A DNA stretch of 64,000 nucleotides from Candidatus Multivoradales bacterium (lineage in GTDB: Bacteria; Acidobacteriota; Thermoanaerobaculia; Multivoradales; JAHEKO01), in contig CBDCYF010000005.1 of NCBI GenBank assembly GCA_965224065.1, positions 2,751,616 to 2,815,615 of the forward strand, written 5' to 3'. Below are positions 29,951 through 47,814 of the stretch, piece by piece. Every line of letters begins with the position of its first letter. Position 1 is the first letter of the stretch. The notes beneath the pieces were generated by a model. That model was not told the origin of the DNA and searched no databases. It was given only the letters and a program-made list of their open reading frames with translations. Made by a program: the position numbers and the translations under genes.

Positions 29951-29965
29951 GGCCGGGGAAGAAAA

Positions 29966-31360: not shown

Positions 31361-31593
31361 GAACGCCTGAAGCGGCCGGCGCCCCTGCCGGCCAATCTCG
31401 GGCGGGGGCAAGCCCCGCCCCTACCTCCGGACAGTTTCCCCTTGAAGCGCCCGGCGCCCCTTCGGGCGGTTGGGCCGTTGTCCCAGCGGGCCTGCGGACC
31501 GTCGCCTCCTCCGGCCAATCTCGGGCGGGGGCTAGCCCCGCCCCTACCTTCGGACGGTTTCCCCCTGAAGCGGCCGGCGCCTCTGCCGGCCGT
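31361..31593. repeat. Composite REP-like repeat cluster in the aceF-lpdA intergenic space (type B hairpin, type A hairpin, then type A and type B again).
   Basis: Type B ctgaagcggccggcgcccctgccggcc at 31367-31393 and 31565-31591. Type A gggcgggggcaagccccgccc (8-bp stem GGGCGGGG/CCCCGCCC) at 31400-31420 and 31524-31544. The flanks of each copy are near-identical. Confidence 0.7.
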
Positions 31594-31616
31594 TTCCTGG
31601 CCTAAGGTTCTCGTCG

Positions 31617-33492: not shown

Positions 33493-33557
33493 TGCAGGAT
33501 CATGCCGGGGGCTGATCGAACCCGATCAAAGGGAGTGGCCGGTTAGGAGGGGTGGAC

Positions 33558-35345
33558 GTGAGAGATCCAAAAAGGGTATTTCTCTTGGCTCTGGCACTCG
33601 TCGCGGTGGGTGCGGTCCCCGCGACGCCCCAGGATCCAACAGCCGAGCCGGAGACTCCGCTCAGCGCCGACGAAGAGCACGAGAAGCTCTTTCTCGAGAA
33701 CCGTTTTCCATCCGCGGCCACCTGCGCCACGTGCCATCCGAGCCACTATCGGGAGTGGTCGGTGTCGCCCCACGCCTACGCCCAGATGAGCCCGGTGTTC
33801 AACGCCATGCACGGCACCGTCCTGAAGGTCACCAACGGTACCAACGGGGACTTTTGCATCCGGTGCCACACGCCGGTGGGGATGAACCTGGAAGAGCCCG
33901 AGTTCATGAGCAACATGGACCGGCATCCGACATCCCGCGAAGGCGTCACTTGCATCGTCTGCCACCGGCTCAACAAGGCCTACGGCAAGCTGAGCGGTCG
34001 GCTGGCGATCGTCGAGGGGGATCTGTTCGAGCCAGTTTTTGGCCCCTCGGGAAACGACGAGGTCGAACGGGTGATCCAGTCAAGCGACTACCGGGTGAAC
34101 CCCGAGCGCGGCAAGGCGGGGCGTGCCATCCACGGCCGGGCGGAGAAGTTCTTCCAGCTCACCACCTCGGGCTTTTGTGCCACCTGCCACGACGTCAACC
34201 TGGTCAACGGATTCCGGCTCGAGGAAGCCTTTAGCGAGTTCAAGACCTCGCCGGCGGCGCGGAACGGGGTCTCCTGTCAGGACTGCCACATGAGCACCGA
34301 GCCGGGGGTGGACTCCGGGTATGCCGAGGGTCCGGCGGCGGTAGTCGGACGCAGGCAGACCCAGAGCCGCAAGCTCACCGACCACATGTTTGTCGGTCCC
34401 GACTACTCGATCGTCCATCCGGGAATCTTTCCGCACAACACAAAGGCCTCGGAGATGGCCACGATCCGGCAATGGCTGACCTTTGACTACAGAGCCGGAT
34501 GGGGGACCGACGAGTTCGAGATCGATGTCCCCGAGAGCTACTCCTTCCCCGAGCACTGGCGCTCGGCCGACGATCGCTACGACGCGCGCGACGTCCTGGA
34601 GGAGAATCTCGAGCTGTTGCGAGAAGCCGAAGCCGCGCGTCTTCAGATTCTGCGCGCCGGGTACAAGCTGGGTGAGATATTGGTCGACAGGGCGGACAAA
34701 AAAAAGGGTCTCGAGTTCCGGGTGGAGGTCAAGAACGGCACCGACGGCCACGGGGTACCGACCGGTTTCGACGCCGAGCGTCTGGTCTTTCTGCAGGTGA
34801 CCGTGGCCGATCGCTCCAGCGAGGTGATTTTCCGTTCCGGCGACCTCGATCCGAACGGCGACGTGCGCGACAACCATTCGCTCTATGTCCACAACGGCGA
34901 GCTGCCGCTGGACAAACAACTCTTCAGCTTGCAGTCGCGGTTTGTCACCCGGATGATCCGGGGCGGCGAGCGCGAACAGGTCCTGGCGGTCAACTACTCA
35001 CCCGACCCGCTGCCGTTTCTTCGGCCTTCGACATCGTCGACCATCTTGACCGGACGACCGCGGGGAGCGCGCAAACACAAACAGAACATCGAGCCGCTCG
35101 GCAGGCGCTGGGCGCGCTACCGGGTGAAGCCCGAGGCGCTGACCGGCAACGGGCCGTACGTCGCGCGGATCCAGCTGATCGCCGGGATGGTGCCGGTCAA
35201 CCTGATCCACGAGATCAAGGGCGTTGGTTTCGACTACGGCATGTCCGCCCGCGAGGTGGCGGAGAAGGTGGTGGAAGGCCACCAAGTCGTGTGGGATCGG
35301 AAGCTCGAGATCGCCACAGAACCGCCACAAGTCGCTGAGCGATGA
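33558..35345 (+). CDS. Pentaheme c-type cytochrome, secreted.
   Basis: Five CXXCH motifs: CATCH, CIRCH, CIVCH, CATCH, CQDCH. Signal peptide RVFLLALALVAVGAVPATPQD. About 595 aa. The GTG start was chosen by RBS spacing. Confidence 0.7.
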   Translation: MRDPKRVFLLALALVAVGAVPATPQDPTAEPETPLSADEEHEKLFLENRFPSAATCATCHPSHYREWSVSPHAYAQMSPVFNAMHGTVLKVTNGTNGDFCIRCHTPVGMNLEEPEFMSNMDRHPTSREGVTCIVCHRLNKAYGKLSGRLAIVEGDLFEPVFGPSGNDEVERVIQSSDYRVNPERGKAGRAIHGRAEKFFQLTTSGFCATCHDVNLVNGFRLEEAFSEFKTSPAARNGVSCQDCHMSTEPGVDSGYAEGPAAVVGRRQTQSRKLTDHMFVGPDYSIVHPGIFPHNTKASEMATIRQWLTFDYRAGWGTDEFEIDVPESYSFPEHWRSADDRYDARDVLEENLELLREAEAARLQILRAGYKLGEILVDRADKKKGLEFRVEVKNGTDGHGVPTGFDAERLVFLQVTVADRSSEVIFRSGDLDPNGDVRDNHSLYVHNGELPLDKQLFSLQSRFVTRMIRGGEREQVLAVNYSPDPLPFLRPSTSSTILTGRPRGARKHKQNIEPLGRRWARYRVKPEALTGNGPYVARIQLIAGMVPVNLIHEIKGVGFDYGMSAREVAEKVVEGHQVVWDRKLEIATEPPQVAER

Positions 35346-36802
35346 GACAAGCGCCGCGGATCTTGCTGGTGTCGTGCCTGCTGGCGGCTGGGGTTGCCGG
35401 ACGGGCCACGGCCTGGCCGTGCCCCGCGGCCGCGGGGGACGAGAAGCCGGCCAAAGCGGACGACCCCGAATCCCGCCATCCGTCGGCCCATCATTCGAGC
35501 CGGTTGAGTGACGAGTACATCCCGCTCCAGCTCGAAGGCTTCCCCAAGCGGCCCAAGCTGCTCCTCGAGCTGGGCAACCCCTATCTCGGCACCGGCAACA
35601 TCAAACCCGGCTTCGAGCTGCCGACCGGCGCGGTCTGGCAGCCGACTCTCATTCTTTTTGGCACGCTCCGGACCGCGGTTCAGAGCTTCGAGGCCGGCGG
35701 TGCCCGGTTCAGCGAAGTCGCCGCGCGCCTCGACCTTTTTGCCAACCTCCAACTTTCGGGCACCGAGCGTCTGGTGGTGGGGTTCCGCAACCTGGATCGG
35801 GAAGGCCGCTTTACGAGCTACGTCATCGAGCCCGAACCGGCGGACGGCGACCGGTTTCGCGAAGAGCTCAACGCCGATATCCAGAGCCTCTACTTCGAAG
35901 GCGATTTTGGCGAGATCTTCCCCAAGCTCGACAAGGAGGACTTTGGCCGTAAGGACTACGGCTTTGCGATCGGGCGCCAGCCGCTGCTCTTTCAAGAGGG
36001 GATGCTGATCGATGATTCGATCGACGGCATCGGCATCACCCGCAACACGCTGCTGCCCAGGAACACGTCGAATTTTCGCGCCACGCTCTATCTGGGCTTC
36101 GAAAATGTCCACCGATCGAATTTCGAGGATGACGAAGCGGATCTGTTCGCGTTGTTGACGTCGACCGATTTTCGCGCCTCGACAGTCGACGCGGACCTGG
36201 CCGTGGTGACCGGATCCGATCGCCACGGCGACCAGGCGAACCTGGGCGTGAGCGCCGTCCAGCGCCTGGGCAAATACAACACGTCGTTTCGAGTGCTCGC
36301 GTCGAGCGCTCTGGATGAAGAGACCTTCTTCAGCACCGACGGCGTGCTGCTCTTTAGCGAGGTGTCCTGGACGCCGCACTACACGCACGATCTGGTCTAT
36401 GTCACGACGTTTGCGGCCCTCGACCGGTATTCGTCCGCCGCCCGCGGCCCGGCCACCGGCGGTCCTCTGGGTCGAGCGGGAATCAACTTCGCCGCCGTCG
36501 GTTTGGGTCGCTTTGGGGCCCCGCTGTCGAGCGTTGCCTGGGATGTGGCCGGTGGCGCGGTCGGGTACCAGAAGTTTCTCGGGCCCGAGAACCGGCGCCA
36601 GGTGCTCGCCGAGCTGGGGGTGAGATTGGGTCTTGCCGACTCCGTTGCCGACTCGGCGGCGGTGAGTGTGCGTTATCAGACCGCGGTGGGGCGGCGGCTG
36701 GTTTTTGGGGTCAGTGGCTTTGGCGCCCGGATCGAGAGCACGTCCGGAGCCTCCACCGACGACCGCTACGGGGGACGTTTCGAGGTCACGCTCAAGTTCT
36801 AG
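35342..36802 (+). CDS. Outer-membrane beta-barrel protein (porin-like; possibly alginate-export/AlgE-like family).
   Basis: Signal peptide MRQAPRILLVSCLLAAGVAG. Alternating amphipathic beta-strand pattern throughout. C-terminal ...RFEVTLKF ending in Phe, which is the OMP beta-signal. The ATGA overlap with the upstream cytochrome stop suggests coupling. Confidence 0.55.
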   Translation: MRQAPRILLVSCLLAAGVAGRATAWPCPAAAGDEKPAKADDPESRHPSAHHSSRLSDEYIPLQLEGFPKRPKLLLELGNPYLGTGNIKPGFELPTGAVWQPTLILFGTLRTAVQSFEAGGARFSEVAARLDLFANLQLSGTERLVVGFRNLDREGRFTSYVIEPEPADGDRFREELNADIQSLYFEGDFGEIFPKLDKEDFGRKDYGFAIGRQPLLFQEGMLIDDSIDGIGITRNTLLPRNTSNFRATLYLGFENVHRSNFEDDEADLFALLTSTDFRASTVDADLAVVTGSDRHGDQANLGVSAVQRLGKYNTSFRVLASSALDEETFFSTDGVLLFSEVSWTPHYTHDLVYVTTFAALDRYSSAARGPATGGPLGRAGINFAAVGLGRFGAPLSSVAWDVAGGAVGYQKFLGPENRRQVLAELGVRLGLADSVADSAAVSVRYQTAVGRRLVFGVSGFGARIESTSGASTDDRYGGRFEVTLKF

Positions 36803-36839
36803 CTCGCCGAGCGTTCGACGGCGCTTCCGACAGCTCGTG

Positions 36840-38963
36840 ATGCTGGTCGCGCCGTTGACTCTTGCTCACAGCGCGTATGCCCAGGGTACGCGCGATCTGC
36901 CCTTTCTCGAGCATTCACGGGTCGATCCGACCAAGGTTCTTACCGCCGAGGCTTGCGGCGAGTGCCACATCGCCGAATTCGAGGTTTGGGAAAAAACGCC
37001 CCACGCGACCGGCTTCAAGACGCTGCATCGCAAGCAGCAGGCGGAGACGATTGCGCGCAAGATGGGGTTTCGGTTGATCAAGCGCGACAGCCTCTGCTTT
37101 AGCTGTCACTACACACCGGTGGTCGATGACGACCGGATCCGGGTGGTCTCGGGGGTCTCGTGCGAGTCGTGCCACGGAGCGAGCGCCGATTGGATCGACG
37201 TCCACAATGACTATGGGGCCGGCCGGGACTATCGCAGCGAGCCCGCCGAGGCGCGCCGCGAGCGCGAGGAAAAAAGCCGCAGCGCCGGAATGCGCCGCCC
37301 TTCGGACCTCTACCCGGTGGTCGCCAACTGCTTCTCCTGCCACACGGTGCCGAGCGAGGAGCTGGTCAACGTGGGTGGGCACACCACCGGCAGCGGCGGG
37401 TTCGAGTTTGTCGAATGGTCCCAGGGGAAAATCCGGCACAACTATCTCGACGTCGTGCGGACCGGCAACCCCGGCCCCAACGCCACCCGGCCGATGGAGC
37501 GCCGCCGGGCGATGTATGTGGTCGGTCGCGCTCTCGATTTGGAATTCGGCCTGCGTGGCCTGGCCGTGGCCAAGGAAGACGGGGTCTACGCCAAGGCGAT
37601 GAGCCGGCGGGTGCGGAGCGCGCTCGCCGAGGTCCGCGCGATCGCTTCTGAAGCCGCGTTGCCCGACGTCGAAGAGATGGTCCGAACGGTCCAGAGCGTG
37701 CGGGTGGTGCCGCGAAACGAGGCGGAGCTGCTCGCGGCAGCGGAGAAGATCGGCGCCGCGACGCGCCGCTTCCTCGATCGTCACTCGACCCTCGACATGG
37801 CGGCGCTCGATCCCCTGATGACCGGAGGGGGCGGCGGGGAAGCCGCCGAAGACACGCTGGCAGCTGCCGGCGAGCCAGAGGGCCTTGCCGATGTAGGAGA
37901 CGCCGAGCCCGGCGCAGCAGGTCTGTCCGCCGGCACGGTGCGGACCGTTTCGGTAGCGGGCGGTCCCGGGCGGGGCCCGGCGTCCGCCGCCTCACCGGCG
38001 GCAACGGCCGGCCAGGGTGTGGTCGGGGAGTTCAAGCGTTCGATCCGCCCAAAGTCCAAGCACCGAACGCTTGGCCCCGGCAGTTGCAGTGGCTGCCACG
38101 GTCCGCAAAACGAATGGTGGTTTGGCCACGCGCACTACCGGTCGGCCGACCCGTTCTTCGACGGCGCCGCGGCAAATCTCCAGATCGCGCGTCTCTACGG
38201 TGTCAAGACATCCGAGATCACGCGGGGCAAGAACATCTGTATGGACTGCCACGGCACGGTGATCTCAGGCAAGGAGTCGCGCGATGTGCTCGACGGCGTG
38301 AGCTGCGAGAGCTGCCATGGGGCCGCCGCCGACTGGCTCGAGCCGCACAAGGACGAGACCGACAAACAGCTCGGCCGCCGCCGGCCGGGGCATCTGGCCG
38401 CCCTGCGGCGCGGCAAGCTGGATCTGGCAGACGCCGGAGCTCGTGCCGAGCGCTGCGCCGGGTGTCATTATGTGACCGACCGGCGGCTGCTGTCGGCGGG
38501 GCATCCGTCGGGCGCCGACTTCGACTTCGCGCGCGCCATGGCCGAGGTCCGTCACTGGCAGCGGCCGCTCGAGCCGGCCGTGCAGTTGGCCTCCGCTTAC
38601 ACGCGGGTCAAGAGCGCGCGCGGGCCGGTGCCCGATGTGCCCAGGGCGGTACTCGCGGCGGCCGGCAGCCGCGTCGAAGGAGGCTCGAAACGCGGCGCCG
38701 TCGCCACTCGCCGGGCCGTTTTTGCAACCGGCACTGCGCCGGGATCGTCGGGCGCTCCGATTCCGATCGCCCTGCTCGATCCGCCGGCGCCGCGACCGGC
38801 CGCCGCCGGATCCCGTTCCTCGAGTCAGGGCCCGCCGGTCGATCTGCCGCCGTTTCCGGAAATCACGGAGTCGACTCCGATCGAGGACGTCTTGCTGATG
38901 CTTCGCGAGCGCCTGGCCCGGTTGTACCGGGCCGTGGCGCCGGGAGGGAGCGGCACCCCATGA
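36840..38963 (+). CDS. Octaheme c-type cytochrome built from two related tetraheme modules joined by an Ala/Gly/Pro-rich linker.
   Basis: Eight CXXCH motifs: CGECH, CFSCH, CESCH, CFSCH in the first module and CSGCH, CMDCH, CESCH, CAGCH in the second. Both modules contain VSCESCHGA(S/A)ADW. The start is ATG 36840 (or GTG 36837) and is uncertain. Confidence 0.7.
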   Translation: MLVAPLTLAHSAYAQGTRDLPFLEHSRVDPTKVLTAEACGECHIAEFEVWEKTPHATGFKTLHRKQQAETIARKMGFRLIKRDSLCFSCHYTPVVDDDRIRVVSGVSCESCHGASADWIDVHNDYGAGRDYRSEPAEARREREEKSRSAGMRRPSDLYPVVANCFSCHTVPSEELVNVGGHTTGSGGFEFVEWSQGKIRHNYLDVVRTGNPGPNATRPMERRRAMYVVGRALDLEFGLRGLAVAKEDGVYAKAMSRRVRSALAEVRAIASEAALPDVEEMVRTVQSVRVVPRNEAELLAAAEKIGAATRRFLDRHSTLDMAALDPLMTGGGGGEAAEDTLAAAGEPEGLADVGDAEPGAAGLSAGTVRTVSVAGGPGRGPASAASPAATAGQGVVGEFKRSIRPKSKHRTLGPGSCSGCHGPQNEWWFGHAHYRSADPFFDGAAANLQIARLYGVKTSEITRGKNICMDCHGTVISGKESRDVLDGVSCESCHGAAADWLEPHKDETDKQLGRRRPGHLAALRRGKLDLADAGARAERCAGCHYVTDRRLLSAGHPSGADFDFARAMAEVRHWQRPLEPAVQLASAYTRVKSARGPVPDVPRAVLAAAGSRVEGGSKRGAVATRRAVFATGTAPGSSGAPIPIALLDPPAPRPAAAGSRSSSQGPPVDLPPFPEITESTPIEDVLLMLRERLARLYRAVAPGGSGTP

Positions 38964-40606
38964 GTGAGACCGGCTCGGCGGCGCTCGACAAGACCACGCT
39001 CCGGCGGGTCGAGCAGTATCGGGACCGCTGGACTTCGGAAGAAACCGACTCCGGCCTGCTCGAGATCTCGGACCGTCTGAGCGCCGCGGCGTTGCGCGAG
39101 TTCGAGATCTTCTCTGACTACGACGACAAATTCCTCGAGAAGATCAGCCCCGACGTCTCGCTGGCGACCTGGCGCGAGGGCGCGGTTCTGTTCGAGGAGG
39201 GCGCCTACATCGACCTGGCGTTCTTCGTGGTCGGCGGAGAGGTCGAGGTCTACCTCCGAGGGGTCGAGGGTGCGAGCCAGGGTCCGCGACCGATCTTCGA
39301 TCTGTCGCGCACGATCGTCGGCGCCGCGGAAGGAACCGATTCCTCGCGCGTGACCGAGCCGGGCACGGTGTTGATGCGCCAAGCGACTCGAACCGCATCG
39401 ACACAGATCACCCTCCTGACCACTATGGATTTCGATCTGCCACGCGACGCCGTCACGCGGTTGGGAGAGGGCGAGCTCTTTGGCGAGATCGGCTCGATGA
39501 GCGGTTGGCCGCAGTCGGTGACGGCCCGCACCGCCACCGAGTGCCGTCTGCTGCAGATCCGGGTGCCGGCACTGCGGTTGATGAAGCGCAAATCCAAGGC
39601 GCTCAAGCAACGGCTCGACGCCCTGTACCGGGAGCGCTCGCTGTCCTCCCAGCTCAAGAGCACCCCGGTCTTTGCGGACTGCAACGACATCTTTATCGAG
39701 GCGCTCAAGGAGAAGGTCGAGTTGGTCTCCTGCGATCCGGGCGAAGTGGTGGCCCGCGAGGGAGAGGTGGCCGACGCGTTTTACGTGCTGCGTTCGGGGT
39801 TTCTCAAGCTCTCGCAACGATTCGAACAAGGCGAGATTGTGGTGTCCTATCTCTCCAAGGGGATGAGCCTTGGCGAGATCGAGTTGCTGATCGACGGGGT
39901 GGACGAGTGGCAGACCACGGTGACGTCGGTCGAGTACGCTGAGCTCATCAAGTTGCCCAAGGAGATCTTCGAGCAACTGATCGGCAGCTACCCGGAGATC
40001 AAGGAACGGCTGTGGCGCTCCGCCACCGACCGGGTGCGAGAGGCGGGCTTCAGCCGCCGCAACATCGGCCACGCCGAGTTCACCGACGTCGCTCTCGAGA
40101 CCGGACTGGTGCAGGGCAACAGCATCCTGGCGATCGACCTGGCGAGCTGCACACGATGCGATGACTGCGTGCGCGCCTGCTCGGCGACCCACGGCGGACG
40201 GTCGCGTTTTGTCCGCGAGGGCGACAAGGTCGAGAACCTGCTGATCGCCAAGTCCTGCTACCACTGCCGTGACCCGGTTTGTCTCGTCGGGTGTCCGACG
40301 GGCGCGATCCATCGGGCCGGCGTCGGCGACGTAGTGGCCGTGGATGAGGAGATTTGTATCGGCTGTTCGAGCTGTTCGCGCAACTGCCCCTACGACGCCA
40401 TCGTGATGCACGAGATGGGTGAGAAATGGCCCGACGACATGGTGCCCCAAGGTCTGCGGGGCAAGGACCGCAGCGTGGCGAGCAAGTGCGATCTTTGCTA
40501 CGACACCGGGCACGGCCCCGCGTGTGTGAGCAATTGCCCGCAAGGCTGTGCCTACCGGGTCGGCTCGCTCGAGGAGTTTCAAGAGCTGCTGGCGGGGTGG
40601 AGATAG
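38960..40606 (+). CDS. Cytoplasmic iron-sulfur protein with two cyclic-nucleotide-binding (CAP-effector) domains fused to a four-cluster [4Fe-4S] ferredoxin (NrfC/DmsB/PsrB-like).
   Basis: Two cNMP-binding beta-roll domains (GELFGEIG...SVTARTAT and ...GMSLGEIELL...). Four Cys clusters: CTRCDDCVRAC, CYHCRDPVCLVGCP, CIGCSSCSRNCP, CDLCYDTGHGPACVSNCP. No signal or Tat motif. The ATGA overlap with the octaheme stop suggests coupling. Confidence 0.7.
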   Translation: MSETGSAALDKTTLRRVEQYRDRWTSEETDSGLLEISDRLSAAALREFEIFSDYDDKFLEKISPDVSLATWREGAVLFEEGAYIDLAFFVVGGEVEVYLRGVEGASQGPRPIFDLSRTIVGAAEGTDSSRVTEPGTVLMRQATRTASTQITLLTTMDFDLPRDAVTRLGEGELFGEIGSMSGWPQSVTARTATECRLLQIRVPALRLMKRKSKALKQRLDALYRERSLSSQLKSTPVFADCNDIFIEALKEKVELVSCDPGEVVAREGEVADAFYVLRSGFLKLSQRFEQGEIVVSYLSKGMSLGEIELLIDGVDEWQTTVTSVEYAELIKLPKEIFEQLIGSYPEIKERLWRSATDRVREAGFSRRNIGHAEFTDVALETGLVQGNSILAIDLASCTRCDDCVRACSATHGGRSRFVREGDKVENLLIAKSCYHCRDPVCLVGCPTGAIHRAGVGDVVAVDEEICIGCSSCSRNCPYDAIVMHEMGEKWPDDMVPQGLRGKDRSVASKCDLCYDTGHGPACVSNCPQGCAYRVGSLEEFQELLAGWR

Positions 40607-40610
40607 GGCG

Positions 40611-41459
40611 ATGCCGGAAGCCGCGGGCAAGCTGCATCTTCGCGGGGGACGCCACCGATCGCGCGGGCTCTACGTCTTTGTGCTGGCCATTGCCGCCGCC
40701 CTGGTGGCGCTGACCGCAAACCTGGCTTTTTCCGAGCTCCGTCCGGGCAACGCCTGGGGGCTGACTTACGGCACTCTCGCAGCGTTGCTCCTGGTGGCGG
40801 CCGCGGCCCTAGGGGTCCGCCGGCGCGCTATGAAGACGTCTTCACGTCTGAACGCCGGCAGCGCTCGCCCGTGGCTCGCCTTCCATCTCTACGGCAGCTT
40901 GCTTTTTCTGTTGATCCTGCTGATGCACAGCGGGTTTCGTGTTCCGGAGGGCCGCATCACCTGGTGGCTCTGGGTCGCCAGCTTGTGGATGGTGGCGACC
41001 GGAGTCGTCGGCCGTTTGCTGCAAAAGTGGCTGCCACGCGTCCTGGCGTCGGGTCTTTCGACCGAGGTGCTCTACGAGCGGATTCCCGAGCTGGTCGAAG
41101 AGATCGCCGGCCGGGCCAAGGCCGTGGCCGAGACCTCCGGCGACGCGATCCGCGCACTCTACGATCGAGTGCTGGCGCCGGCACTGGGCAGTCCACGGCG
41201 ACGGTGGATCTACTTAGTCGACGTCACCGGCGGGATCCAGGCTCGGCTCAAAGAGTTTGAATACCTGCGCGCTCTACTCCCGGAAGGCGAGCAAAAAAAG
41301 CTGGACGAGCTCGAGCGGCTCTATCGAACCAAGCTCGAGATCGACGCGCACTACACGCTGCAACTGCCCCTTCGCTGGTGGCTCTACCTCCACCTGCCGG
41401 TCACCCCGGTGGTGCTGGCGCTGTTGCTGCTTCACCTCTACACGGTGCTTTTCTATTGA
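40611..41459 (+). CDS. Integral membrane protein, putative di-heme b-type transmembrane electron carrier (cytochrome b / ferric-reductase-domain-like His pattern).
   Basis: Five predicted TM helices. TM3 (WLAFHLYGSLLFLLILLMHSG) and TM5 (WWLYLHLPVTPVVLALLLLHLY) each carry two His 14 positions apart (His-x13-His), the spacing used for bis-His heme b ligation in cytochrome b and NOX/FRD proteins. The function is inferred. Confidence 0.45.
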   Translation: MPEAAGKLHLRGGRHRSRGLYVFVLAIAAALVALTANLAFSELRPGNAWGLTYGTLAALLLVAAAALGVRRRAMKTSSRLNAGSARPWLAFHLYGSLLFLLILLMHSGFRVPEGRITWWLWVASLWMVATGVVGRLLQKWLPRVLASGLSTEVLYERIPELVEEIAGRAKAVAETSGDAIRALYDRVLAPALGSPRRRWIYLVDVTGGIQARLKEFEYLRALLPEGEQKKLDELERLYRTKLEIDAHYTLQLPLRWWLYLHLPVTPVVLALLLLHLYTVLFY

Positions 41460-43045
41460 GCAAAAAGAAGAGCGGCAAGGGCGCTTTTGGCGATCTCGAC
41501 CTGCCGGTGGCGACGGCCTATCCGAGTCAGTTGTCACGCCGCCGGATGCTCCTGCTGGGAGTGGTCGCGGTGGCCGTGATCGCGGCGTTGATCGCCTATG
41601 TTCAGTTCACGGGCAGCAGCCGTTGGGCCTCGAAGGGTCCGCTGTCCTCGGCGCACGCGGCGTTCGAGTGCGGCAGTTGTCATGCGTCGGACGCTCGTAC
41701 GGTGACCGATGAGAAGTGCTCGTCTTGCCACGAGAAGTTCGGCGACGAGCTGGGTGTCTACACGTTTGCCTCGCACTACTTGTACAAGTCCGACGACTTC
41801 CGTCGCCTGGTCCCCTCGTCGGATGAGAAGCCTTGCTCGGCCTGCCATCTCGAACACGAGGGGCGTCACGCCGACATCACCCGAGTCGGAGACGCGCGTT
41901 GCGAGACCTGCCACTTTGCGTCTTTTGACAAAGACCATCCGGAGTTCGATTTTGCCGCCGAAGAGATCCCGGATCCCGCCGCGCTCGATTTCGCCCACGT
42001 CCACCACGTACGCGAGGTCATGAAGCGTCAGAAGCTCGACGACATCGAGGCCTCGTGTCTCTATTGCCACAACGCTCAGCCCGACGGGCGTGCGTTCCAG
42101 CCGACCTCCTTCGACCGGCATTGCGACGCCTGTCATCTCACCGCGGCGGTATCCACGCCCGGTCTGCCGATTGCGGGCGCTGCGGCGGGTGTCGAGACCC
42201 TGGAGCAGATCGCCGAGCGGGGCGGCCCGGGCACACGCTGGGTCTATTTCTCGAACCCCAACGAGTTCCGGGTTCGAGGCTCCGCGGTCGTCAAGACGCC
42301 GCTACACCACAAAGACCCCTGGGTACTGGACAACCTGCGGCGTTTGCGCGGGATGCTCTATCCTGACGCCGGCCTCGCCGACCTATTGCTCGCGTCGCCC
42401 GACGCCGAGCCGCATGAGATCCGCGCGCTCTATCAAGAGGCGATCGCCGCCCTCGAGGAGCAGGTCGTTGGGTTGCGCGGTCGCCCCGAGCCCGAGATCC
42501 AAGCGGAGCTCGGGCGGATCACCGATCTGCTCGAACGGCTGAAGCAGCAGGTGGCGGACCCGTTTGCGCCCCTCGACGAGACGCGCTTCGCCCTGGCGCT
42601 CGACAGAAAAGCCGATGAGCTCGGCTCGGAAACACAGGGCGAGATCGAGGGCTTGATCGAGGAGTTGACCCGGCCCTGTCTCCAGTGCCACGAGCTGCGC
42701 GCGGCGACGATCGCGCGAGTCCAAAAGGACCAGCGCGTGTTGAGACGCGCAAAGTTCGACCACCGAGCCCACATCATCCAGGCGCGTTGTCTGGATTGCC
42801 ACCGCGGAATCCCCATCGCGGAGGGGCTCGAGTCGGAAACGCCGACCACGCCGACAGACTCTGAGCTAGACCATTCGGCGATCCAGAATCTACCGGGGAT
42901 CGAGACTTGCCGCACCTGTCACCGGTCGCAGCAGGCCGCCGACCGCTGCGTGACCTGTCACGACTTCCACGCCGACAAGAGCCGGCGATCCGAGCTGTTG
43001 CTGTATTTGGGAGAGGACGTACCGGAAGAGGAGGCGAGGTCGTGA
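41456..43045 (+). CDS. Membrane-anchored decaheme c-type cytochrome.
   Basis: Ten CXXCH motifs: CGSCH, CSSCH, CSACH, CETCH, CLYCH, CDACH, CLQCH, CLDCH, CRTCH, CVTCH. The N-terminal TM anchor is MLLLGVVAVAVIAALIAYV. The proposed TTG start at 41456 overlaps the upstream stop. ATG 41546 is an alternative. Confidence 0.7.
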   Translation: MSKKKSGKGAFGDLDLPVATAYPSQLSRRRMLLLGVVAVAVIAALIAYVQFTGSSRWASKGPLSSAHAAFECGSCHASDARTVTDEKCSSCHEKFGDELGVYTFASHYLYKSDDFRRLVPSSDEKPCSACHLEHEGRHADITRVGDARCETCHFASFDKDHPEFDFAAEEIPDPAALDFAHVHHVREVMKRQKLDDIEASCLYCHNAQPDGRAFQPTSFDRHCDACHLTAAVSTPGLPIAGAAAGVETLEQIAERGGPGTRWVYFSNPNEFRVRGSAVVKTPLHHKDPWVLDNLRRLRGMLYPDAGLADLLLASPDAEPHEIRALYQEAIAALEEQVVGLRGRPEPEIQAELGRITDLLERLKQQVADPFAPLDETRFALALDRKADELGSETQGEIEGLIEELTRPCLQCHELRAATIARVQKDQRVLRRAKFDHRAHIIQARCLDCHRGIPIAEGLESETPTTPTDSELDHSAIQNLPGIETCRTCHRSQQAADRCVTCHDFHADKSRRSELLLYLGEDVPEEEARS

Positions 43046-43506
43046 AGGCCAAGCTGATCTCACAGTGGGGATCGACCCGCGGCACCGAGCACGGGATCGC
43101 CGGCGAAGCCACCATCGGGCGCGCCGAAGACAATTCGATTTGCGTCGGTGCGCGACCGGTGTCGTCGCACCATGCGCGGGTCTTTTTCAACGGCGACCGC
43201 GGGCTCTATTACGTCGAAGACCTGGGAAGCCTCAATGGCACCGAGCTCGACGGAATGCGGATCACCCGCGCCGAGCCCCTCGGGCGGCTCCATGTTCTCC
43301 GCTTTGGTGGGGTCGCCGAGTTCCTGTTTGTCGAGCTGGATCGCACCCCGGCCTTTGACGGCTCCGAGCCATCACCCACCAAGGTCCCGTCGGCGGCCGA
43401 CGCCACGGATCAAACTCATGTCGATGCCAAGCTCCCCGAGCTGCCCGAGGCCCTGCGCACTGACACGGCGCCACCGCAACCCCCAGAAGAAGACGGCGGC
43501 GAGTGA
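43042..43506 (+). CDS. FHA domain-containing protein (phospho-threonine binding).
   Basis: 154 aa. FHA signature TIGRAEDNSICVGARPVSSHHARVF...GLYYVEDLGSLNGTELDG. A GTGA overlap joins it to the decaheme stop. Confidence 0.65.
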   Translation: MKAKLISQWGSTRGTEHGIAGEATIGRAEDNSICVGARPVSSHHARVFFNGDRGLYYVEDLGSLNGTELDGMRITRAEPLGRLHVLRFGGVAEFLFVELDRTPAFDGSEPSPTKVPSAADATDQTHVDAKLPELPEALRTDTAPPQPPEEDGGE

Positions 43507-43518
43507 AAGAGGGCTGAC

Positions 43519-45759
43519 GTGGCGGCCCTGGACATCCTGATCGTCGGTGGCGGACCCGCCGGCACGGCGGTGGCCTTTCGCGCCCGCGAGCTGGGTCTCG
43601 ATGCCCTGGTCATCGACTACGACGATCTGATGAAACGCATCCGCGACTATTCCAAGGACAAGCTCATCCTGCCGGCCTTTGGTGGTGGCGACAAGGTGTG
43701 CTTTCCCAGGGGTGGCGATCTCGTCGAGTGTCTTCAGTTTCAACCGATCGACAAGGACGACATGTGCGCCGAGTGGAAGGCGCTTTACGAGAAGCACGAC
43801 ATCGCCAGGCGTGTTGGACTTGAATTGACCGGGCTCGAGCCCTTGGAGGATCGCTATCGCGCCGTGACGTGGGATCACAACCGGCGCACCGAGGAGTGCT
43901 TTGAGGCCCGCCACGTTGTGCTGGCGATCGGTCGCGGGGTGCCGCGGCGCTTCGACATCCCGGGAAATACCGATGGCATCGCCTATCGGCTGGCGGACCC
44001 CGAGGACTACGTCGGCAGCCCGGCGTGCGTGGTGGGTGGCGGCACCTCGGCCGCCGAAGCGGTCATCGCGATCTCCAACGCCAAGTCGCAGGCCGGCGAC
44101 GAGAGCTCGGTCTACTGGTCCTACCGCGGCGACAAGATGCCGCGTGTCTCAAAGTCGCTGGCCGGCGAGTTCTTTGCCGCCTATGTCGGCAACGGCAACA
44201 TTCGCTACTTCCGCAAGAGTGAGCCGGCTGCGATTTCCGTCGGCGACGACCGGCGCGAATACCTCGCCGTCCGGGTCGACCGCCACCAAATGGCCGGCCG
44301 GCCCAACGAGCTGACACTCCTCGAGTTCCCAAAGGAGATGTGCCTTGCCTGTATCGGGGAGGATATTCCCGAAGCCCTGCTCAACTCGTTTGGAATTCAT
44401 CTTGCGACCGGCGGTCCCAGGGGGCGCAAGCGGATGGTCGTCAATCGCTGCCTCGAGACCTGTCGCCCCAACGTCTATCTGATCGGCGACCTGCTGTCCC
44501 AGGCCTATTTCGAGACCGAGGACTTCGATGCCGACCCGGCCGGTTTTCGTGAGATCAAACATCGCGGCAACATCAAATCCGCCCTGCGCGACGGGGTGCG
44601 GGTGGCGCAGATCATCGAGCAGCGGCTGGCCGGCAAGGAGGATGTCGTAGTCGACATCGAAGACGCCGAGGATACGGGCTCCGGTGTCTCGATTGCCGCG
44701 GTCTCCGCGCCTCTGGGATCGAGCGGGCCGCCGCGGGAAAGTCTCGGTGAGGGTCGCTCCGAGACCGAGGCCGAGGCGTTCGTGATTCGGGTGCTGCCGA
44801 CCGGTGTCGAAGAAGACGAGTACCCGGTTCGCTCGCACGGGATCACCACGATCGGGAGCGGGGACTGCGACCTGTCGTTTCCGAGCGATTCGATGCTTGC
44901 GCCGTGCCACGGCTCGGTCTCCCATGGAGAAGAGGGCTACTTTCTGCGCGATGACGGCAGCTCGACCGGGGTGTTTCTCAAGATCGCGCCGGCGCGCAAG
45001 GTCGAGCTCTCGAGCGGCGACCTGCTCCGCGTGGGCCGGCAGTTTCTGGTGCTCCAGCGAGAGAACGGTGTGGCGTCGCTCGTCCACTACTCGGCCGATG
45101 GCGAGGAGCGGGGGCAGCTCGCGCTCGAGCCCGGGAGAACCTGGGTGCTCGGGCGCGGCAACCCCGACCGGGTGCTCGACGCCGGGGACAAGACCCTGTC
45201 GCGGCGGCACCTTGCGGTCTCGTTTGAAAAAGGGGTCGTTCGAGTCAAGGACCTCAAAAGCGTCAACGGGACGTTTCTTCGCGTCCGCCCGGCGCGCCGG
45301 CTCGAACACGGCGACCAGATCCGGCTCGGACAGCAACTCTTGACCTTCAGCCTACGGGGCGAGGCCGCGCTGGACCCGGGAATCGAATCGCGGTCGGCGT
45401 CGGTTGGCGGCGCTGTCGAAGGCGGTACCGAGGCGACACCGGCGCCCGGCCCCGGACAGGCGAGTGTGGTCTTTCGCGGCTCGGGATCTGATGCTCCCAT
45501 CCCGGTGGCGGCGGGTCAGAGCCTGTGCGAGGCGGCCGAGGCCGCCGGAGTCGAGATCACCGCCGAATGCCATTCCGGGATTTGCGGCAGCGATCCGATC
45601 CGGATCGTCTCGGGCGCCGAGTACCTCGCCGGGGACGCTGCCGACCAGGAGCGCGAGACCCTCGAGGAACTCTGCGAGGTCGAGCCGGGCTCGTGCCGGC
45701 TGGCCTGCATGACACGGATCAACGGCCCGGTCGTCGTCGAGCTCCTGAGTTCGGACTGA
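43519..45759 (+). CDS. Multidomain redox protein: FAD/NAD(P)-binding pyridine-nucleotide oxidoreductase domain, then two FHA domains, then a C-terminal Cys-rich ferredoxin-like ([2Fe-2S]?) domain.
   Basis: N-terminal ILIVGGGPAGTAVA (FAD) and VVGGGTSAAEAV (NAD(P)) Rossmann motifs. FHA-1 is ITTIGSGDCDLSF...GYFLRDDGSSTGVFL. FHA-2 is TWVLGRGNPDRVLD...SRRHLAVSF...DLKSVNGTFL. The C-terminus carries CHSGICGSD...CRLAC. 746 aa. Confidence 0.65.
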   Translation: MAALDILIVGGGPAGTAVAFRARELGLDALVIDYDDLMKRIRDYSKDKLILPAFGGGDKVCFPRGGDLVECLQFQPIDKDDMCAEWKALYEKHDIARRVGLELTGLEPLEDRYRAVTWDHNRRTEECFEARHVVLAIGRGVPRRFDIPGNTDGIAYRLADPEDYVGSPACVVGGGTSAAEAVIAISNAKSQAGDESSVYWSYRGDKMPRVSKSLAGEFFAAYVGNGNIRYFRKSEPAAISVGDDRREYLAVRVDRHQMAGRPNELTLLEFPKEMCLACIGEDIPEALLNSFGIHLATGGPRGRKRMVVNRCLETCRPNVYLIGDLLSQAYFETEDFDADPAGFREIKHRGNIKSALRDGVRVAQIIEQRLAGKEDVVVDIEDAEDTGSGVSIAAVSAPLGSSGPPRESLGEGRSETEAEAFVIRVLPTGVEEDEYPVRSHGITTIGSGDCDLSFPSDSMLAPCHGSVSHGEEGYFLRDDGSSTGVFLKIAPARKVELSSGDLLRVGRQFLVLQRENGVASLVHYSADGEERGQLALEPGRTWVLGRGNPDRVLDAGDKTLSRRHLAVSFEKGVVRVKDLKSVNGTFLRVRPARRLEHGDQIRLGQQLLTFSLRGEAALDPGIESRSASVGGAVEGGTEATPAPGPGQASVVFRGSGSDAPIPVAAGQSLCEAAEAAGVEITAECHSGICGSDPIRIVSGAEYLAGDAADQERETLEELCEVEPGSCRLACMTRINGPVVVELLSSD

Positions 45760-45760
45760 A

Positions 45761-45830
45761 GCGGCCGGCGCCCCTGCCGGTCGTTGGGGCCGGTGTCCCG
45801 CCGGCCGACCCTACCCGGCCGGAAAATCGA
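45761..45830. repeat. REP-like hairpin element (type B) between convergent genes. Probably a bidirectional terminator.
   Basis: tgaagcggccggcgcccctgccgg..., the same unit as at 31367 and inside aceF. Followed by further GC palindromes (ccggccgg). Confidence 0.6.
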
Positions 45831-47814
45831 CTCGGATAAACGTGTACATCCGGCCGGCCACGCCGTCTCGGACCGCGGGCCGGAAGGTCGCTCCCTTGGC
45901 GGCTGCCATCGCGGCCTCCTTGAGCTTGCGCTTGAACGATGGGCGCTTGACGCTGGTCGAGAGCACCTTGCCGTGCTCGTCCACCAGCGCGGTGACCATA
46001 ATGGTCGTCGCGGTCCTTGGCGGTCCGTCTTCGAGCTTTGGTGGCGGGAGATGGAGGAGCACCGGTGGGATCACACCGAGAGCCCCCGGTTGATAGACCT
46101 CCTGGGTACGGCCGCGAGGCGGCGGTCCTCCCCGCGGGTCGCCGGGTGGTGGCGGACGGTGCTCCGGCGGGGGTTGATCTCCGGGTGGCCCACCGGGCTG
46201 CGGCCGCCGGCCCTCCGGACCGGTTCCGGGTGGCCCGGCTTCCGGAGCGGGGCGGCCCGATGGGTCGGACGGCGGCGTCGGCTCGGCTCGAGGCGCGGAT
46301 TCTTCGGGTGCGGGAATCGCCGCGGCTTCCGCTTCCGTAGGCGGTGGCTGCGGGACGGCGGTCAGCGCGAGATCGGCGTCGCCGGTCTCCGGGGTCCAGC
46401 GTTCCGCGGGATCCACGGCGACGGTCTCGCCACGCTCCGCCACCGCGTCGCCATCGCCATCGCCATCGCCACCGCCCCCGGATCTCCAAAGAAACCACCC
46501 GACGGCGGCGAGCGCGAGCAGCGCCGCCACTCCCAATCCGGCGGCTACCATCGGGAGCCGTTTCCCCTTTCCCGAGGCCGCGGGCGCCGGCTGGGTCGCT
46601 GGCGCCACCGTGGTGGGCTCGTCGGCCAGCATCTCGCGATACTTGGCGAGCTCCGGGACCTCGCCGTGCCGGGCCAGGGCCTTGTCCAGCAGCCGCTGGG
46701 CCTTGTTCTGCTTTCCGGCCGCCAGAATCTTGTCGATCTTGGCGGCATCCTTGGTGAGTTGCCGCAGGTCGACCGTCTTGGCCTTCTTTCCCGTCATTTC
46801 GGTGACCCGTGACGGTTCGGGTGTGGTGACCATGCCAAAGTCGCGATCCAGCCGGCTTTGGGTGGAGCCGGGCTCCTTGGATTCGGAGATCTTCGGCAAC
46901 GCGACCGCCGTGGCGCGAATGGTCGTGTCGAGCTCGGTGCGGAGAGAGCTTTTTGGGTTCCGGAATCCCGTGAGCGCTTCCGCAAATTCCATCGCGCTCG
47001 CGTGCCGGTTGTCGGGCTCTTTCTCGAGCGCCTTGAGCACGGCCTCGCGCAGCCCGGTCTCGATCCGGCCGTCTTTGTCCGTCTCGTCAAACGCGCGCGG
47101 AGCCTGGAAAAGATGGCAGCCGGCGAGCTCGGTAAAACTGTCGCCCTCGAAGGGGTACTCGCCGGTCAAGAGCTGGTAGAGCATCACCCCGAACGAATAG
47201 ATATCGCTTCGGTGGTCGAGCTCATCCGAGCCCGCCTTGGCCGAGAACTGCTCGGGCGAGCTGTAGCGGACCTTGCCGAGAAAAACGCCGGTCTGTGTCA
47301 ACTGGGCGACGGCTTCCAGGTTCTTGGCAATGCCCAAATCGATCAGCTTGACCACCGGACCGCCGGAGTGGTCCGAAGCCAGCATGATGTTGTCCGGTGA
47401 GATGTCGCGGTGGACGAACTTCTGATCGTGGAGATAGCCCAGAGCTTCGAGTGCCTGGGTCGCGAGCGCGATCGTCAGGTCGACGCTCGGTGGCCCCGTG
47501 GCCTTCAAGACCGCGTTCAGCCCGACGCCGTCGATGAACTCCATGACGATGTAGGCGGTTCCCTCGTCGGTCACCGCGAAGTCGTAGAGCTGTGCGATGT
47601 TGGGGTGCTTGAGGCGAATCGCCATCTTCGCCTCGCGCAGGAAGCGGCGCTGTATCTCTTCCTTGGACGCCGCTTGGGGCCGCAGGACCTTGATGACCCG
47701 GATCTCCTCCAGCAGCCGGTGCTTGACCTTGTAGACCGAGCCGATGCCACCCTCCCCGATCTTGGCGAGGATCTCGTACTTGCCCTCGAGCATCTCCTGG
47801 AGCGGCATGGTCAT
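45811..47814 (-). CDS. Serine/threonine protein kinase with a TM segment, a Pro/Gly-rich periplasmic region and a C-terminal TonB-C-like domain.
   Basis: Kinase motifs GEGGIGSVYKV, HRDISPDNIML, DLGIAK, SPEQ. TM segment MVAAGLGVAALLALAAVGWFLW. A (GD)n run. The C-terminal about 90 aa (PPVLLHLPPPKL...GKVLSTSVKRPSF...LKEAAMAAAKGATFRPA...) resembles the TonB C-terminal fold. Confidence 0.75.
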   Translation of the reverse strand: MTMPLQEMLEGKYEILAKIGEGGIGSVYKVKHRLLEEIRVIKVLRPQAASKEEIQRRFLREAKMAIRLKHPNIAQLYDFAVTDEGTAYIVMEFIDGVGLNAVLKATGPPSVDLTIALATQALEALGYLHDQKFVHRDISPDNIMLASDHSGGPVVKLIDLGIAKNLEAVAQLTQTGVFLGKVRYSSPEQFSAKAGSDELDHRSDIYSFGVMLYQLLTGEYPFEGDSFTELAGCHLFQAPRAFDETDKDGRIETGLREAVLKALEKEPDNRHASAMEFAEALTGFRNPKSSLRTELDTTIRATAVALPKISESKEPGSTQSRLDRDFGMVTTPEPSRVTEMTGKKAKTVDLRQLTKDAAKIDKILAAGKQNKAQRLLDKALARHGEVPELAKYREMLADEPTTVAPATQPAPAASGKGKRLPMVAAGLGVAALLALAAVGWFLWRSGGGGDGDGDGDAVAERGETVAVDPAERWTPETGDADLALTAVPQPPPTEAEAAAIPAPEESAPRAEPTPPSDPSGRPAPEAGPPGTGPEGRRPQPGGPPGDQPPPEHRPPPPGDPRGGPPPRGRTQEVYQPGALGVIPPVLLHLPPPKLEDGPPRTATTIMVTALVDEHGKVLSTSVKRPSFKRKLKEAAMAAAKGATFRPAVRDGVAGRMYTFIRVDFPAG

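Follow-up and report, generated by a model that had tools for sequence, protein, structure and literature searches.

A putative five-helix di-haem cytochrome b encoded among iron-sulphur and multihaem cytochrome genes of a Multivoradales bacterium

We analysed a stretch of 64,000 nucleotides from contig CBDCYF010000005.1 of Candidatus Multivoradales bacterium (assembly GCA_965224065.1), which is referred to here as the window, and in particular the open reading frame (ORF) at positions 40611-41459 of its plus strand. This ORF, designated here as the target, encodes a membrane protein of 282 amino acids (aa). It starts with an ATG at 40611, 4 bases past the stop codon of the upstream gene, and ends with a stop codon at 41457-41459; a paralogue search found no second copy of it within the 64-kb window. 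Judged from sequence comparisons and gene context, the target is probably the membrane subunit of a multi-subunit electron conduit, in the form of a five-helix di-haem cytochrome b, and we assign a probability of roughly 70% to this reading. The gene and the transmembrane segments (TMs) and other parts of its product are as follows.

40611-41459, plus strand: target gene, putative five-TM di-haem cytochrome b (from the ORF and its translation, its relatives and an AlphaFold2 model).
40668-40730, plus strand: TM1, residues about 20-40, predicted to run from inside to outside and preceded by a cytoplasmic tail rich in Lys and Arg (hydropathy; model helix 18-40).
40755-40817, plus strand: TM2, residues about 49-69, with the invariant G54 close to its predicted periplasmic end and level with the outer His pair.
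40863-40934, plus strand: TM3, residues about 85-108, with H92 at the predicted cytoplasmic level and H106 at the periplasmic level, proposed ligands of the inner and the outer haem b.
40956-41021, plus strand: TM4, residues about 116-137, with the invariant G131 and the near-invariant G134 close to its predicted cytoplasmic end and level with the inner His pair.
41022-41375, plus strand: insert between TM4 and TM5, residues 138-255 (118 aa), hydrophilic, predicted to be all-helical and, by the positive-inside rule, cytoplasmic.
41376-41453, plus strand: TM5, residues about 256-281, with H261 at the predicted cytoplasmic level and H275 at the periplasmic level.

The five hydrophobic segments (residues about 20-40, 49-69, 85-108, 116-137 and 256-281) were located by a 19-residue hydropathy scan, and they coincide with helices of an AlphaFold2 model that was built on 43 homologues (mean predicted local distance difference test score (pLDDT) 81.9, predicted template modelling score 0.72). 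The codons of the two His residues in TM3 are at 40884-40886 (H92) and 40926-40928 (H106), and those of the two in TM5 at 41391-41393 (H261) and 41433-41435 (H275). Both pairs are spaced i/i+14, leaving 13 residues between the two His, and the protein ends 7 residues beyond H275. The first-pass annotation of the window had described five TMs with paired His in TM3 and TM5, 13 residues apart, and a soluble insert of about 120 aa between TM4 and TM5. The hydropathy scan, the model and the codon positions uphold the former description, and the insert was found as the 118-aa segment listed above.

In the model the insert forms helices at residues 155-174, 178-191, 205-220 and 225-261, in a block with pLDDT values of up to 97. 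Its conserved motifs are E-V-x-Y-E-R-I-P, D-[IV]-T-G-G-I and K241-x3-D245-x5-Q251. The second of these belongs to a longer string, Y-x-x-D-[IV]-T-G-G-I (residues 201-209, window positions 41211-41237), which is kept in nearly all close relatives and of which the T-G-G-I part matches the pT-x-x-I preference that is common among FHA domains. As an FHA target, the D-[IV]-T-G-G-I motif might have been expected to track FHA genes; it does not, being present also where adjacent FHA genes are missing, and a role of T-G-G-I as a phospho-switch within the insert is speculation.

The target has 408 relatives in a 90%-clustered protein collection, which are about 260-300 aa long, labelled 'hypothetical' and without Pfam domains. 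In a 50%-clustered library, a threshold of E≤1e-3 gives 2718 representatives of the family, and E≤1e-10 still gives 1280. To describe its conservation we used an alignment of 98 representatives with 22-54% identity to the window protein, on which the counts in this and the next two paragraphs are based. Only six columns of this alignment are invariant, namely G54, H92, H106, G131, H261 and H275. The exact 14-residue spacing of both His pairs is present in 98/98 relatives, and all four His are kept in 83/83 homologous loci from genomes and metagenomes. By alignment, this His pattern is far beyond chance, because four His are invariant at fixed spacing in 98 divergent relatives. The invariant Gly residues lie in the non-ligating helices, with G54 level with H106 and H275, and G131 together with G134 level with H92 and H261; in the cytochrome b of the bc1 complex, conserved Gly residues in the flanking helices likewise give the porphyrins space. 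There is no conserved acidic, Met or Cys residue inside the membrane, and the near-invariant residues other than His and Gly sit at both membrane surfaces. The insert is present in all of the relatives, the distance from H106 to H261 ranging from 136 to 174 residues.

The N-terminal tail contains on average 3.1 Lys and Arg residues against 0.4 Asp and Glu, and the loop between TM2 and TM3 contains 4.3 against 0.1, while the TM1-TM2 and TM3-TM4 loops have about 0.8 Lys and Arg each. In addition, a protein with cyclic nucleotide monophosphate (cNMP)-binding domains and iron-sulphur (Fe-S) clusters, of the kind encoded directly upstream of the target in the window, is naturally fused to the target N-terminus in P0121 (828 aa), P0162 (771 aa) and P0266 (856 aa), and the same fusion is found in P0131 and P0166, which are apparently truncated. 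Because of the basic tail and TM2-TM3 loop (positive-inside rule) and of these N-terminal Fe-S fusions, the predicted topology is N-in, with a cytoplasmic insert and with TM3 and TM5 running in parallel from inside to outside. With this topology the cytoplasmic level is occupied by H92 and H261 and the periplasmic level by H106 and H275, similar to NOX/ferric-reductase domains, so that by loop charges and fusions TM3 and TM5 each have one His at either level. At a rise of 1.5 Å per residue, 14 helix residues span about 21 Å, which is approximately the distance between the stacked b haems in NOX and cytochrome b. In one further relative, P0177, the membrane protein may be joined to a c3-type cytochrome segment.

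When the 98 relatives were scanned singly against Pfam at E≤1, three families recurred as weak matches: DUF4405 in 51 relatives (best E 2.3e-6), Ni_hydr_CYTB (prokaryotic cytochrome b561) in 23 (best E 2.5e-4), and Ferric_reduct in 14 (best E 3.4e-6). Every other Pfam family was matched by at most 5 of the 98. The matched stretches of the relatives were TM2-TM3 and TM5. By extrapolation, the E-values of 2.3e-6 and 3.4e-6 correspond to about 28-29 bits, which is near or just above the respective cut-offs of 26.7 and 28. We take DUF4405, Ni_hydr_CYTB and Ferric_reduct to be members of one Pfam clan of two-haem cytochromes. DUF4405, MsrQ-like and PepSY-like proteins share a common core with four central His, and haem b binding has been demonstrated for a purified DUF4405 protein and for FezC (PMC11334425). 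Searches of Pfam, NCBIfam, the PDB and Foldseek returned no confident match to a haem-free family, whereas the first-pass annotation had named such a match as one that would refute its proposal; haem b families were the only ones to recur. The target is therefore best read, from sequence, as a divergent new family in the di-haem cytochrome b superfamily, for which haem binding is predicted. The assignment to the superfamily is made because profile matches recur at sub-threshold or borderline level, and not on any single significant match.

The target differs in several respects from known groups of this superfamily. DUF4405 cytochromes (PF14358, including the ferrosome protein FezC), the commonest weak match, likewise have four His in the membrane core, and their proposed role is transmembrane electron transfer to extracytosolic redox proteins. 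However, the target has five TMs instead of six and an additional 118-aa insert, the window protein itself stays below the DUF4405 threshold, and the partners are an Fe-S protein and multihaem cytochromes instead of ApbE-flavinylated proteins or ferrosome components. In comparison with the ferric-reductase superfamily (NOX/DUOX, yeast Fre, STEAP and MsrQ; PF01794), the target has five TMs and an x13/x13 His spacing; compared to NOX and Fre it lacks a fused FAD/NADPH domain and is accompanied by a separate flavoprotein and a four-cluster Fe-S wire, and the proposed acceptor is a decahaem cytochrome c and not O2, Fe(III) or MsrP.

Several more specific assignments were considered and rejected. 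NOX proteins have six TMs, with His-x13-His in TM3 and His-x12-His in TM5, so that the target, with five TMs, 13/13 spacing and no fused dehydrogenase, is not a NOX or ferric reductase domain (FRD) protein proper. Membership of the bc1/b6f cytochrome b family (PF00033) was dismissed since there is no profile match and there are five TMs where that family has 8 (or 4+3), the His spacing alone being common; cytochrome b profiles were outside the 25 families most frequently matched by the 98 relatives at E≤1, and none matched the window protein. Models of NarI gave no match with the window protein or the 98 relatives at any threshold tried, and FdnI and SdhC models gave no significant match with either. 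Membership of the NarI/FdnI families was rejected on this basis, the Ni_hydr_CYTB match being weak at its best E of 2.5e-4. A haem-lyase (WWD-like) reading of the string TWWLW was abandoned as this stretch is not conserved in the wider family. The analogy with bc1 and NOX cytochromes that the first-pass annotation had drawn is inexact in two details: helices B and D (TM2 and TM4) carry the ligands in bc1 cytochrome b, and the TM5 pair of NOX is separated by 12 residues. The suggestion that the protein is a new variant is a fair one, as neither Pfam nor NCBIfam has a model for the family, none of its relatives is of solved structure, and the insert is family-defining and matched nothing in Pfam or the PDB. 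A sequence search of the PDB with two family profiles gave only chance matches to soluble coiled proteins, in the insert region.

The genes between 33552 and 45759 are co-directional, and most of their junctions overlap or nearly abut (ATGA, ATGA, TTGA and GTGA). The overlapping stop and start codons indicate that these genes form one operon. The neighbours of the target in this operon, and the genes flanking it, are listed here.

27299-29950, 29966-31360 and 31617-33428: E1, E2 and lipoyl-domain-bearing E3 of a pyruvate/2-oxoacid dehydrogenase.
33552-35345, plus strand: pentahaem c-type cytochrome, first gene of the operon (signal peptide, 5 CxxCH motifs, Pfam).
35342-36802, plus strand: candidate outer-membrane porin, a protein of 486 aa that has a signal peptide, ends in Phe and matches nothing in Pfam.
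36840-38963, plus strand: octahaem c-type cytochrome (8 CxxCH motifs, Pfam c554/c7-type domains).
38960-40606, plus strand: cNMP-binding four-cluster Fe-S protein of 548 aa without a signal peptide (Pfam, NCBIfam, Cys motifs).
41456-43045, plus strand: decahaem c-type cytochrome (10 CxxCH motifs, N-terminal TM anchor, Pfam c3/c7-type).
43042-43506, plus strand: FHA-domain protein, a phospho-threonine reader (Pfam FHA, E=2.6e-13).
43519-45759, plus strand: flavoprotein with a Pyr_redox_2 domain (pyridine-nucleotide-disulfide-oxidoreductase fold; Pfam), two FHA domains and a C-terminal 2Fe-2S ferredoxin domain.
45811-47814, minus strand: Ser/Thr protein kinase (Pfam) whose linker is proline-rich and whose C-terminus is TonB_C-like.

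The Fe-S protein has 16 Cys in 4 complete ferredoxin-type motifs and NCBIfam matches of the DmsB/NrfC/FdnH type, and the start of its gene overlaps the stop of the upstream gene (ATGA). The decahaem cytochrome may start at the TTG at 41456, which overlaps the stop of the target, or at the ATG at 41546. The gene order and the counts of Cys and CxxCH motifs agree with the earlier description of the target as lying between a cytoplasmic Fe-S protein and a periplasmic decahaem cytochrome. The flavoprotein gene is separate from that of the target and lies two genes downstream of it; its product, at which NAD(P)H electrons are proposed to enter, contains two dinucleotide motifs with GGG, VGGGPAG and VVGGGTSAAE. 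In the ferredoxin domain of this protein (Fer2, the C-terminal ~90 aa) we noted C684-x4-C689 without an obvious third Cys at the canonical +2/+3 position, and the cluster ligation may be atypical. The kinase is likely a regulator that acts via the FHA domains. The layout of the pentahaem, 486-aa and octahaem genes (33552-38963) resembles that of a porin-cytochrome outer-membrane conduit, of which the 486-aa protein is, from its sequence features, the candidate porin. The pyruvate/2-oxoacid dehydrogenase set just upstream of the operon (27299-33428) is complete and constitutes a source of NADH. The cluster contains no msrP-like gene.

To compare the gene neighbourhood across genomes, we searched 83 loci, 80 from GTDB species genomes and 3 from assemblies, with the neighbour proteins of the window; the denominators for neighbours are the loci with enough flanking sequence. 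A multihaem (decahaem-like) gene lies directly downstream of the target in 70 of 74 loci, and a cNMP/Fe-S gene directly upstream in 61 of 75. Within 6 kb downstream, an FHA gene was found in 50/57 loci and a flavoprotein gene in 45/57. Over the 83 loci, the conserved order is thus Fe-S protein, target, multihaem cytochrome of about 500 aa, FHA protein and NAD(P)H flavoprotein. The outer parts of the window's operon are less constant: the pentahaem gene co-occurs in 17/83 loci, the candidate porin gene in 19/83, and the octahaem cytochrome gave a tblastn match, often partial, in 58/83. A kinase gene is nearby in 30/83 loci, sometimes with a PP2C phosphatase gene. The full arrangement, including the pentahaem and candidate-porin genes, is found in about 17 loci, among them that of the cultured Sulfidibacter corallicola M133 (L046), whose orthologue is at about 1,032,127-1,032,924 of NZ_CP071793.1. 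The hosts are labelled as Acidobacteriota (Thermoanaerobaculia, Holophagae and Acanthopleuribacteraceae), Bacteroidota (Rhodothermales, Cytophagia and Chitinophagales), KSB1, Ignavibacteria, Calditrichaceae, Myxococcota, Nitrospirota and others. The triad of Fe-S, target and multihaem genes is kept in L086 and L088, which are among the more distant members of the alignment. In L088 (Logan SRR28338165_13293, 89-1699) a protein with FHA, NAD_binding_1 (FNR-type) and Fer2 domains takes the place of the Pyr_redox_2 flavoprotein, and this non-orthologous replacement suggests that the conserved role is to pass electrons from NAD(P)H to a 2Fe-2S cluster. The cNMP/Fe-S protein of L088 itself bears an FHA domain.

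The conservation, the topology, the weak matches to haem b families, the synteny and the fusions all support the suggestion of the first-pass annotation that the target may be the transmembrane step of the system. In the mechanism that we propose, the inner haem b would be ligated by H92 in TM3 and H261 in TM5, and the outer haem b by H106 and H275, while G54 in TM2 and G131/G134 in TM4 would leave space for the porphyrins. The insert and the basic TM2-TM3 loop would dock the module of the cNMP-binding protein that carries the four [4Fe-4S] clusters. The insert is proposed as a docking platform because it sits where the D-loop sits in NOX, and the D-loop of NOX touches the dehydrogenase domain. 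The outer haem would be turned towards the membrane-anchored decahaem cytochrome c, so that electrons could flow from NAD(P)H to FAD, the [2Fe-2S] cluster, the four [4Fe-4S] clusters, the inner haem b, the outer haem b and the ten haems c, and beyond the decahaem cytochrome to the further multihaem cytochromes and the putative outer-membrane porin. The system would thereby act as a split NOX-like electron exporter for which the quinone pool is not required, and it may be gated by cyclic nucleotides and, through the FHA domains, by Ser/Thr phosphorylation. In this scheme we infer the haem binding, the subunit contacts, the donor, the direction, the regulation and the independence of quinone.

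Several points weigh against the proposal that the target is the di-haem membrane subunit of such a conduit. The window protein itself matched no Pfam family at E≤0.1, and its sole NCBIfam match was a spurious one to CPA2 (E=0.014). A Foldseek search with the predicted structure returned nothing from the PDB at E<0.39, the fold search being non-specific. Likewise, the family profile showed no significant similarity in hhalign to the E. coli proteins MsrQ and CybB or to an MsrQ alignment, the latter being shallow, with homologues that were all at least 77% identical and mostly 84-100%. In 14 of 75 loci there is no Fe-S gene immediately upstream of the target. If NAD(P)H electrons were exported and no protons were pumped, the membrane potential would be dissipated, and it must be asked what benefit the cell derives. 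Finally, the membrane-anchored decahaem cytochrome could itself take electrons from quinol.

The lack of an above-threshold haem-family match for the window protein, together with the many regulatory domains in the neighbourhood, would also agree with a target that is not a cytochrome but a transporter or sensor in which the conserved His bind a metal ion, a membrane tether or signalling scaffold for the cNMP, FHA and kinase proteins, or a haem-handling factor for c-type cytochrome maturation. We regard these options as highly improbable. His pairs about 21 Å apart on two helices with flanking Gly residues are the signature of a di-haem protein, and we know of no ion pathway with a comparable His/Gly pattern. 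Moreover, the membrane part has no conserved acidic, Met or Cys residue, and the fusion to the Fe-S wire and the synteny argue for bulk electron transfer. With respect to a maturation factor, TWWLW is not conserved and the haem motifs of the neighbours are all standard CxxCH, which require no special lyase.

A different partner for the haems is a more serious consideration. The target could be a quinone-coupled cytochrome b anchor like NarI, FdnI, HyaC or di-haem SdhC, which exchanges electrons with the menaquinone pool and links quinol/quinone either to the cytoplasmic Fe-S protein or to the periplasmic decahaem cytochrome, without a direct wire from cytoplasm to periplasm. The partners of characterised four-cluster Fe-S proteins are mostly quinone-reactive anchors (Nar, Fdn and Dms), and the 23 relatives with weak Ni_hydr_CYTB matches point to a family that includes quinone-reactive cytochromes b. 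The similarity to NarH-NarI and FdnH-FdnI also extends to the pairing of a DmsB/NarH-type four-cluster protein (16 Cys) with a predicted two-haem membrane protein and, in the case of Nar, to the cytoplasmic location of the Fe-S subunit. Nevertheless, we consider this explanation unlikely: the target has no significant match to NarI, FdnI or SdhC, no quinone-site motif was recognised in it, the near-invariant residues beyond His and Gly being at the membrane surfaces, and the neighbours provide a donor chain in the cytoplasm as well as an acceptor chain in the periplasm, which makes a quinone unnecessary for closing the circuit.

Known electron-transfer systems can be compared to the target's proposed role in a conduit. 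The Hmc, Tmc and DsrMKJOP complexes of sulfate reducers similarly combine a periplasmic multihaem cytochrome c, a membrane cytochrome b and a cytoplasmic Fe-S protein, so that electrons cross the membrane between the cytochromes c on the periplasmic side and the Fe-S proteins on the cytoplasmic side. They contain NarI-type cytochromes b and HdrD-like (CCG) Fe-S proteins. In contrast, none of these NarI- and HdrD-like domains is present here, and an NAD(P)H flavoprotein and the cNMP, FHA and kinase components are added. CymA, ImcH, CbcL and CbcBA resemble the proposed system in supplying a multihaem network of the periplasm and a porin-cytochrome-like module, the latter also being encoded in the window's operon, but they are quinol dehydrogenases, whereas the system here has a proposed cytoplasmic Fe-S/flavoprotein input and an unrelated cytochrome b. 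These four are inner-membrane entry points that have been characterised for extracellular electron transfer in Gram-negative bacteria, and to our knowledge such entry points draw on the quinone pool.

The direction of electron flow deserves separate consideration, since it is not fixed by gene content. Haem and Fe-S wires are intrinsically reversible, and porin-cytochrome modules work both ways (MtrCAB versus MtoAB/PioAB). Electrons could thus be imported from extracellular or periplasmic donors such as Fe(II), a cathode or a partner cell via the multihaem cytochromes and the b haems to the cytoplasmic Fe-S protein and flavoprotein, where NAD(P)+ or another acceptor would be reduced. On general bioenergetic grounds, however, inward flow opposes the membrane potential, and from most extracellular donors electrons would have to move uphill to reach NAD(P)+; the cluster has no conserved energy-coupling subunit, and the hosts include heterotrophic groups (Bacteroidota and Acidobacteriota), for which reasons import appears decidedly improbable. 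Both import and quinone coupling would leave the di-haem assignment intact, the difference being one of partner or direction only. Outward flow is downhill and favoured by the membrane potential, yet it dissipates that potential. This may be why the system has so many regulatory components, namely the cNMP-binding domains, three FHA domains in the operon, the kinase and, in other loci, a PP2C phosphatase.

The more far-reaching proposal, that the operon as a whole is a widespread quinone-independent electron-export machine, a multi-subunit analogue of NADPH oxidase that is switched by cNMP and FHA domains, is put forward tentatively, and we would place it somewhat below even odds. The chance that the operon in its entirety represents a new type of electron-export system is substantial. 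A literature search found no paper that describes the target family or the gene cluster. In the literature searched there is no description of the family, of its cytoplasmic insert or of the pairing with a decahaem cytochrome, a cNMP-binding four-cluster Fe-S protein and an FHA-bearing NAD(P)H flavoprotein; bis-His di-haem transmembrane cytochromes b as such are well known. If the proposal is true, the system would depart from the quinone-fed entry points and be a direct wire from cytoplasm to periplasm, closest in logic to the NADPH oxidases and to Hmc/Tmc. The coupling to cNMP, FHA, kinase and phosphatase components suggests post-translational gating of a respiratory or redox-balancing pathway, of which we know few bacterial examples. 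Naming the family, which is unannotated and has 2718 clusters at 50% identity and which occurs in sediment and soil phyla that are abundant but little studied, would improve metabolic predictions for many metagenome-assembled genomes (MAGs), and the cultured carrier S. corallicola M133 makes the hypothesis directly testable.

The loci also vary in ways that concern the organization of the cluster. Some MAGs contain two paralogous copies (L011/L022, L030/L043 and L039/L050). The copies of the first pair, on JAKEEU010000444 and JAKEEU010000329 of KSB1 PMV_1, differ in content: L011 has cNMP/Fe-S, upstream cytochrome and candidate-porin genes, which L022 lacks. An insertion of about 4 kb separates the target from the multihaem gene in L011, and L017 and L034 have their multihaem gene upstream of the Fe-S gene. 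At the position of the kinase, L001 and L003 have one or two kinases together with a PP2C phosphatase, or else an FHA-GGDEF protein. In loci labelled KSB1/Chlorobi (L002, 15987-19370; L003, 569-7448) the cluster is accompanied by an HbpS-like (PF03928) protein, by a protein of about 535-555 aa without a Pfam match, and by a protein of about 1200 aa that contains LVIVD repeats as well as a cytochrome c3 segment. These additional genes of L002 and L003 apparently stand in for the pentahaem, candidate-porin and octahaem trio of the window.

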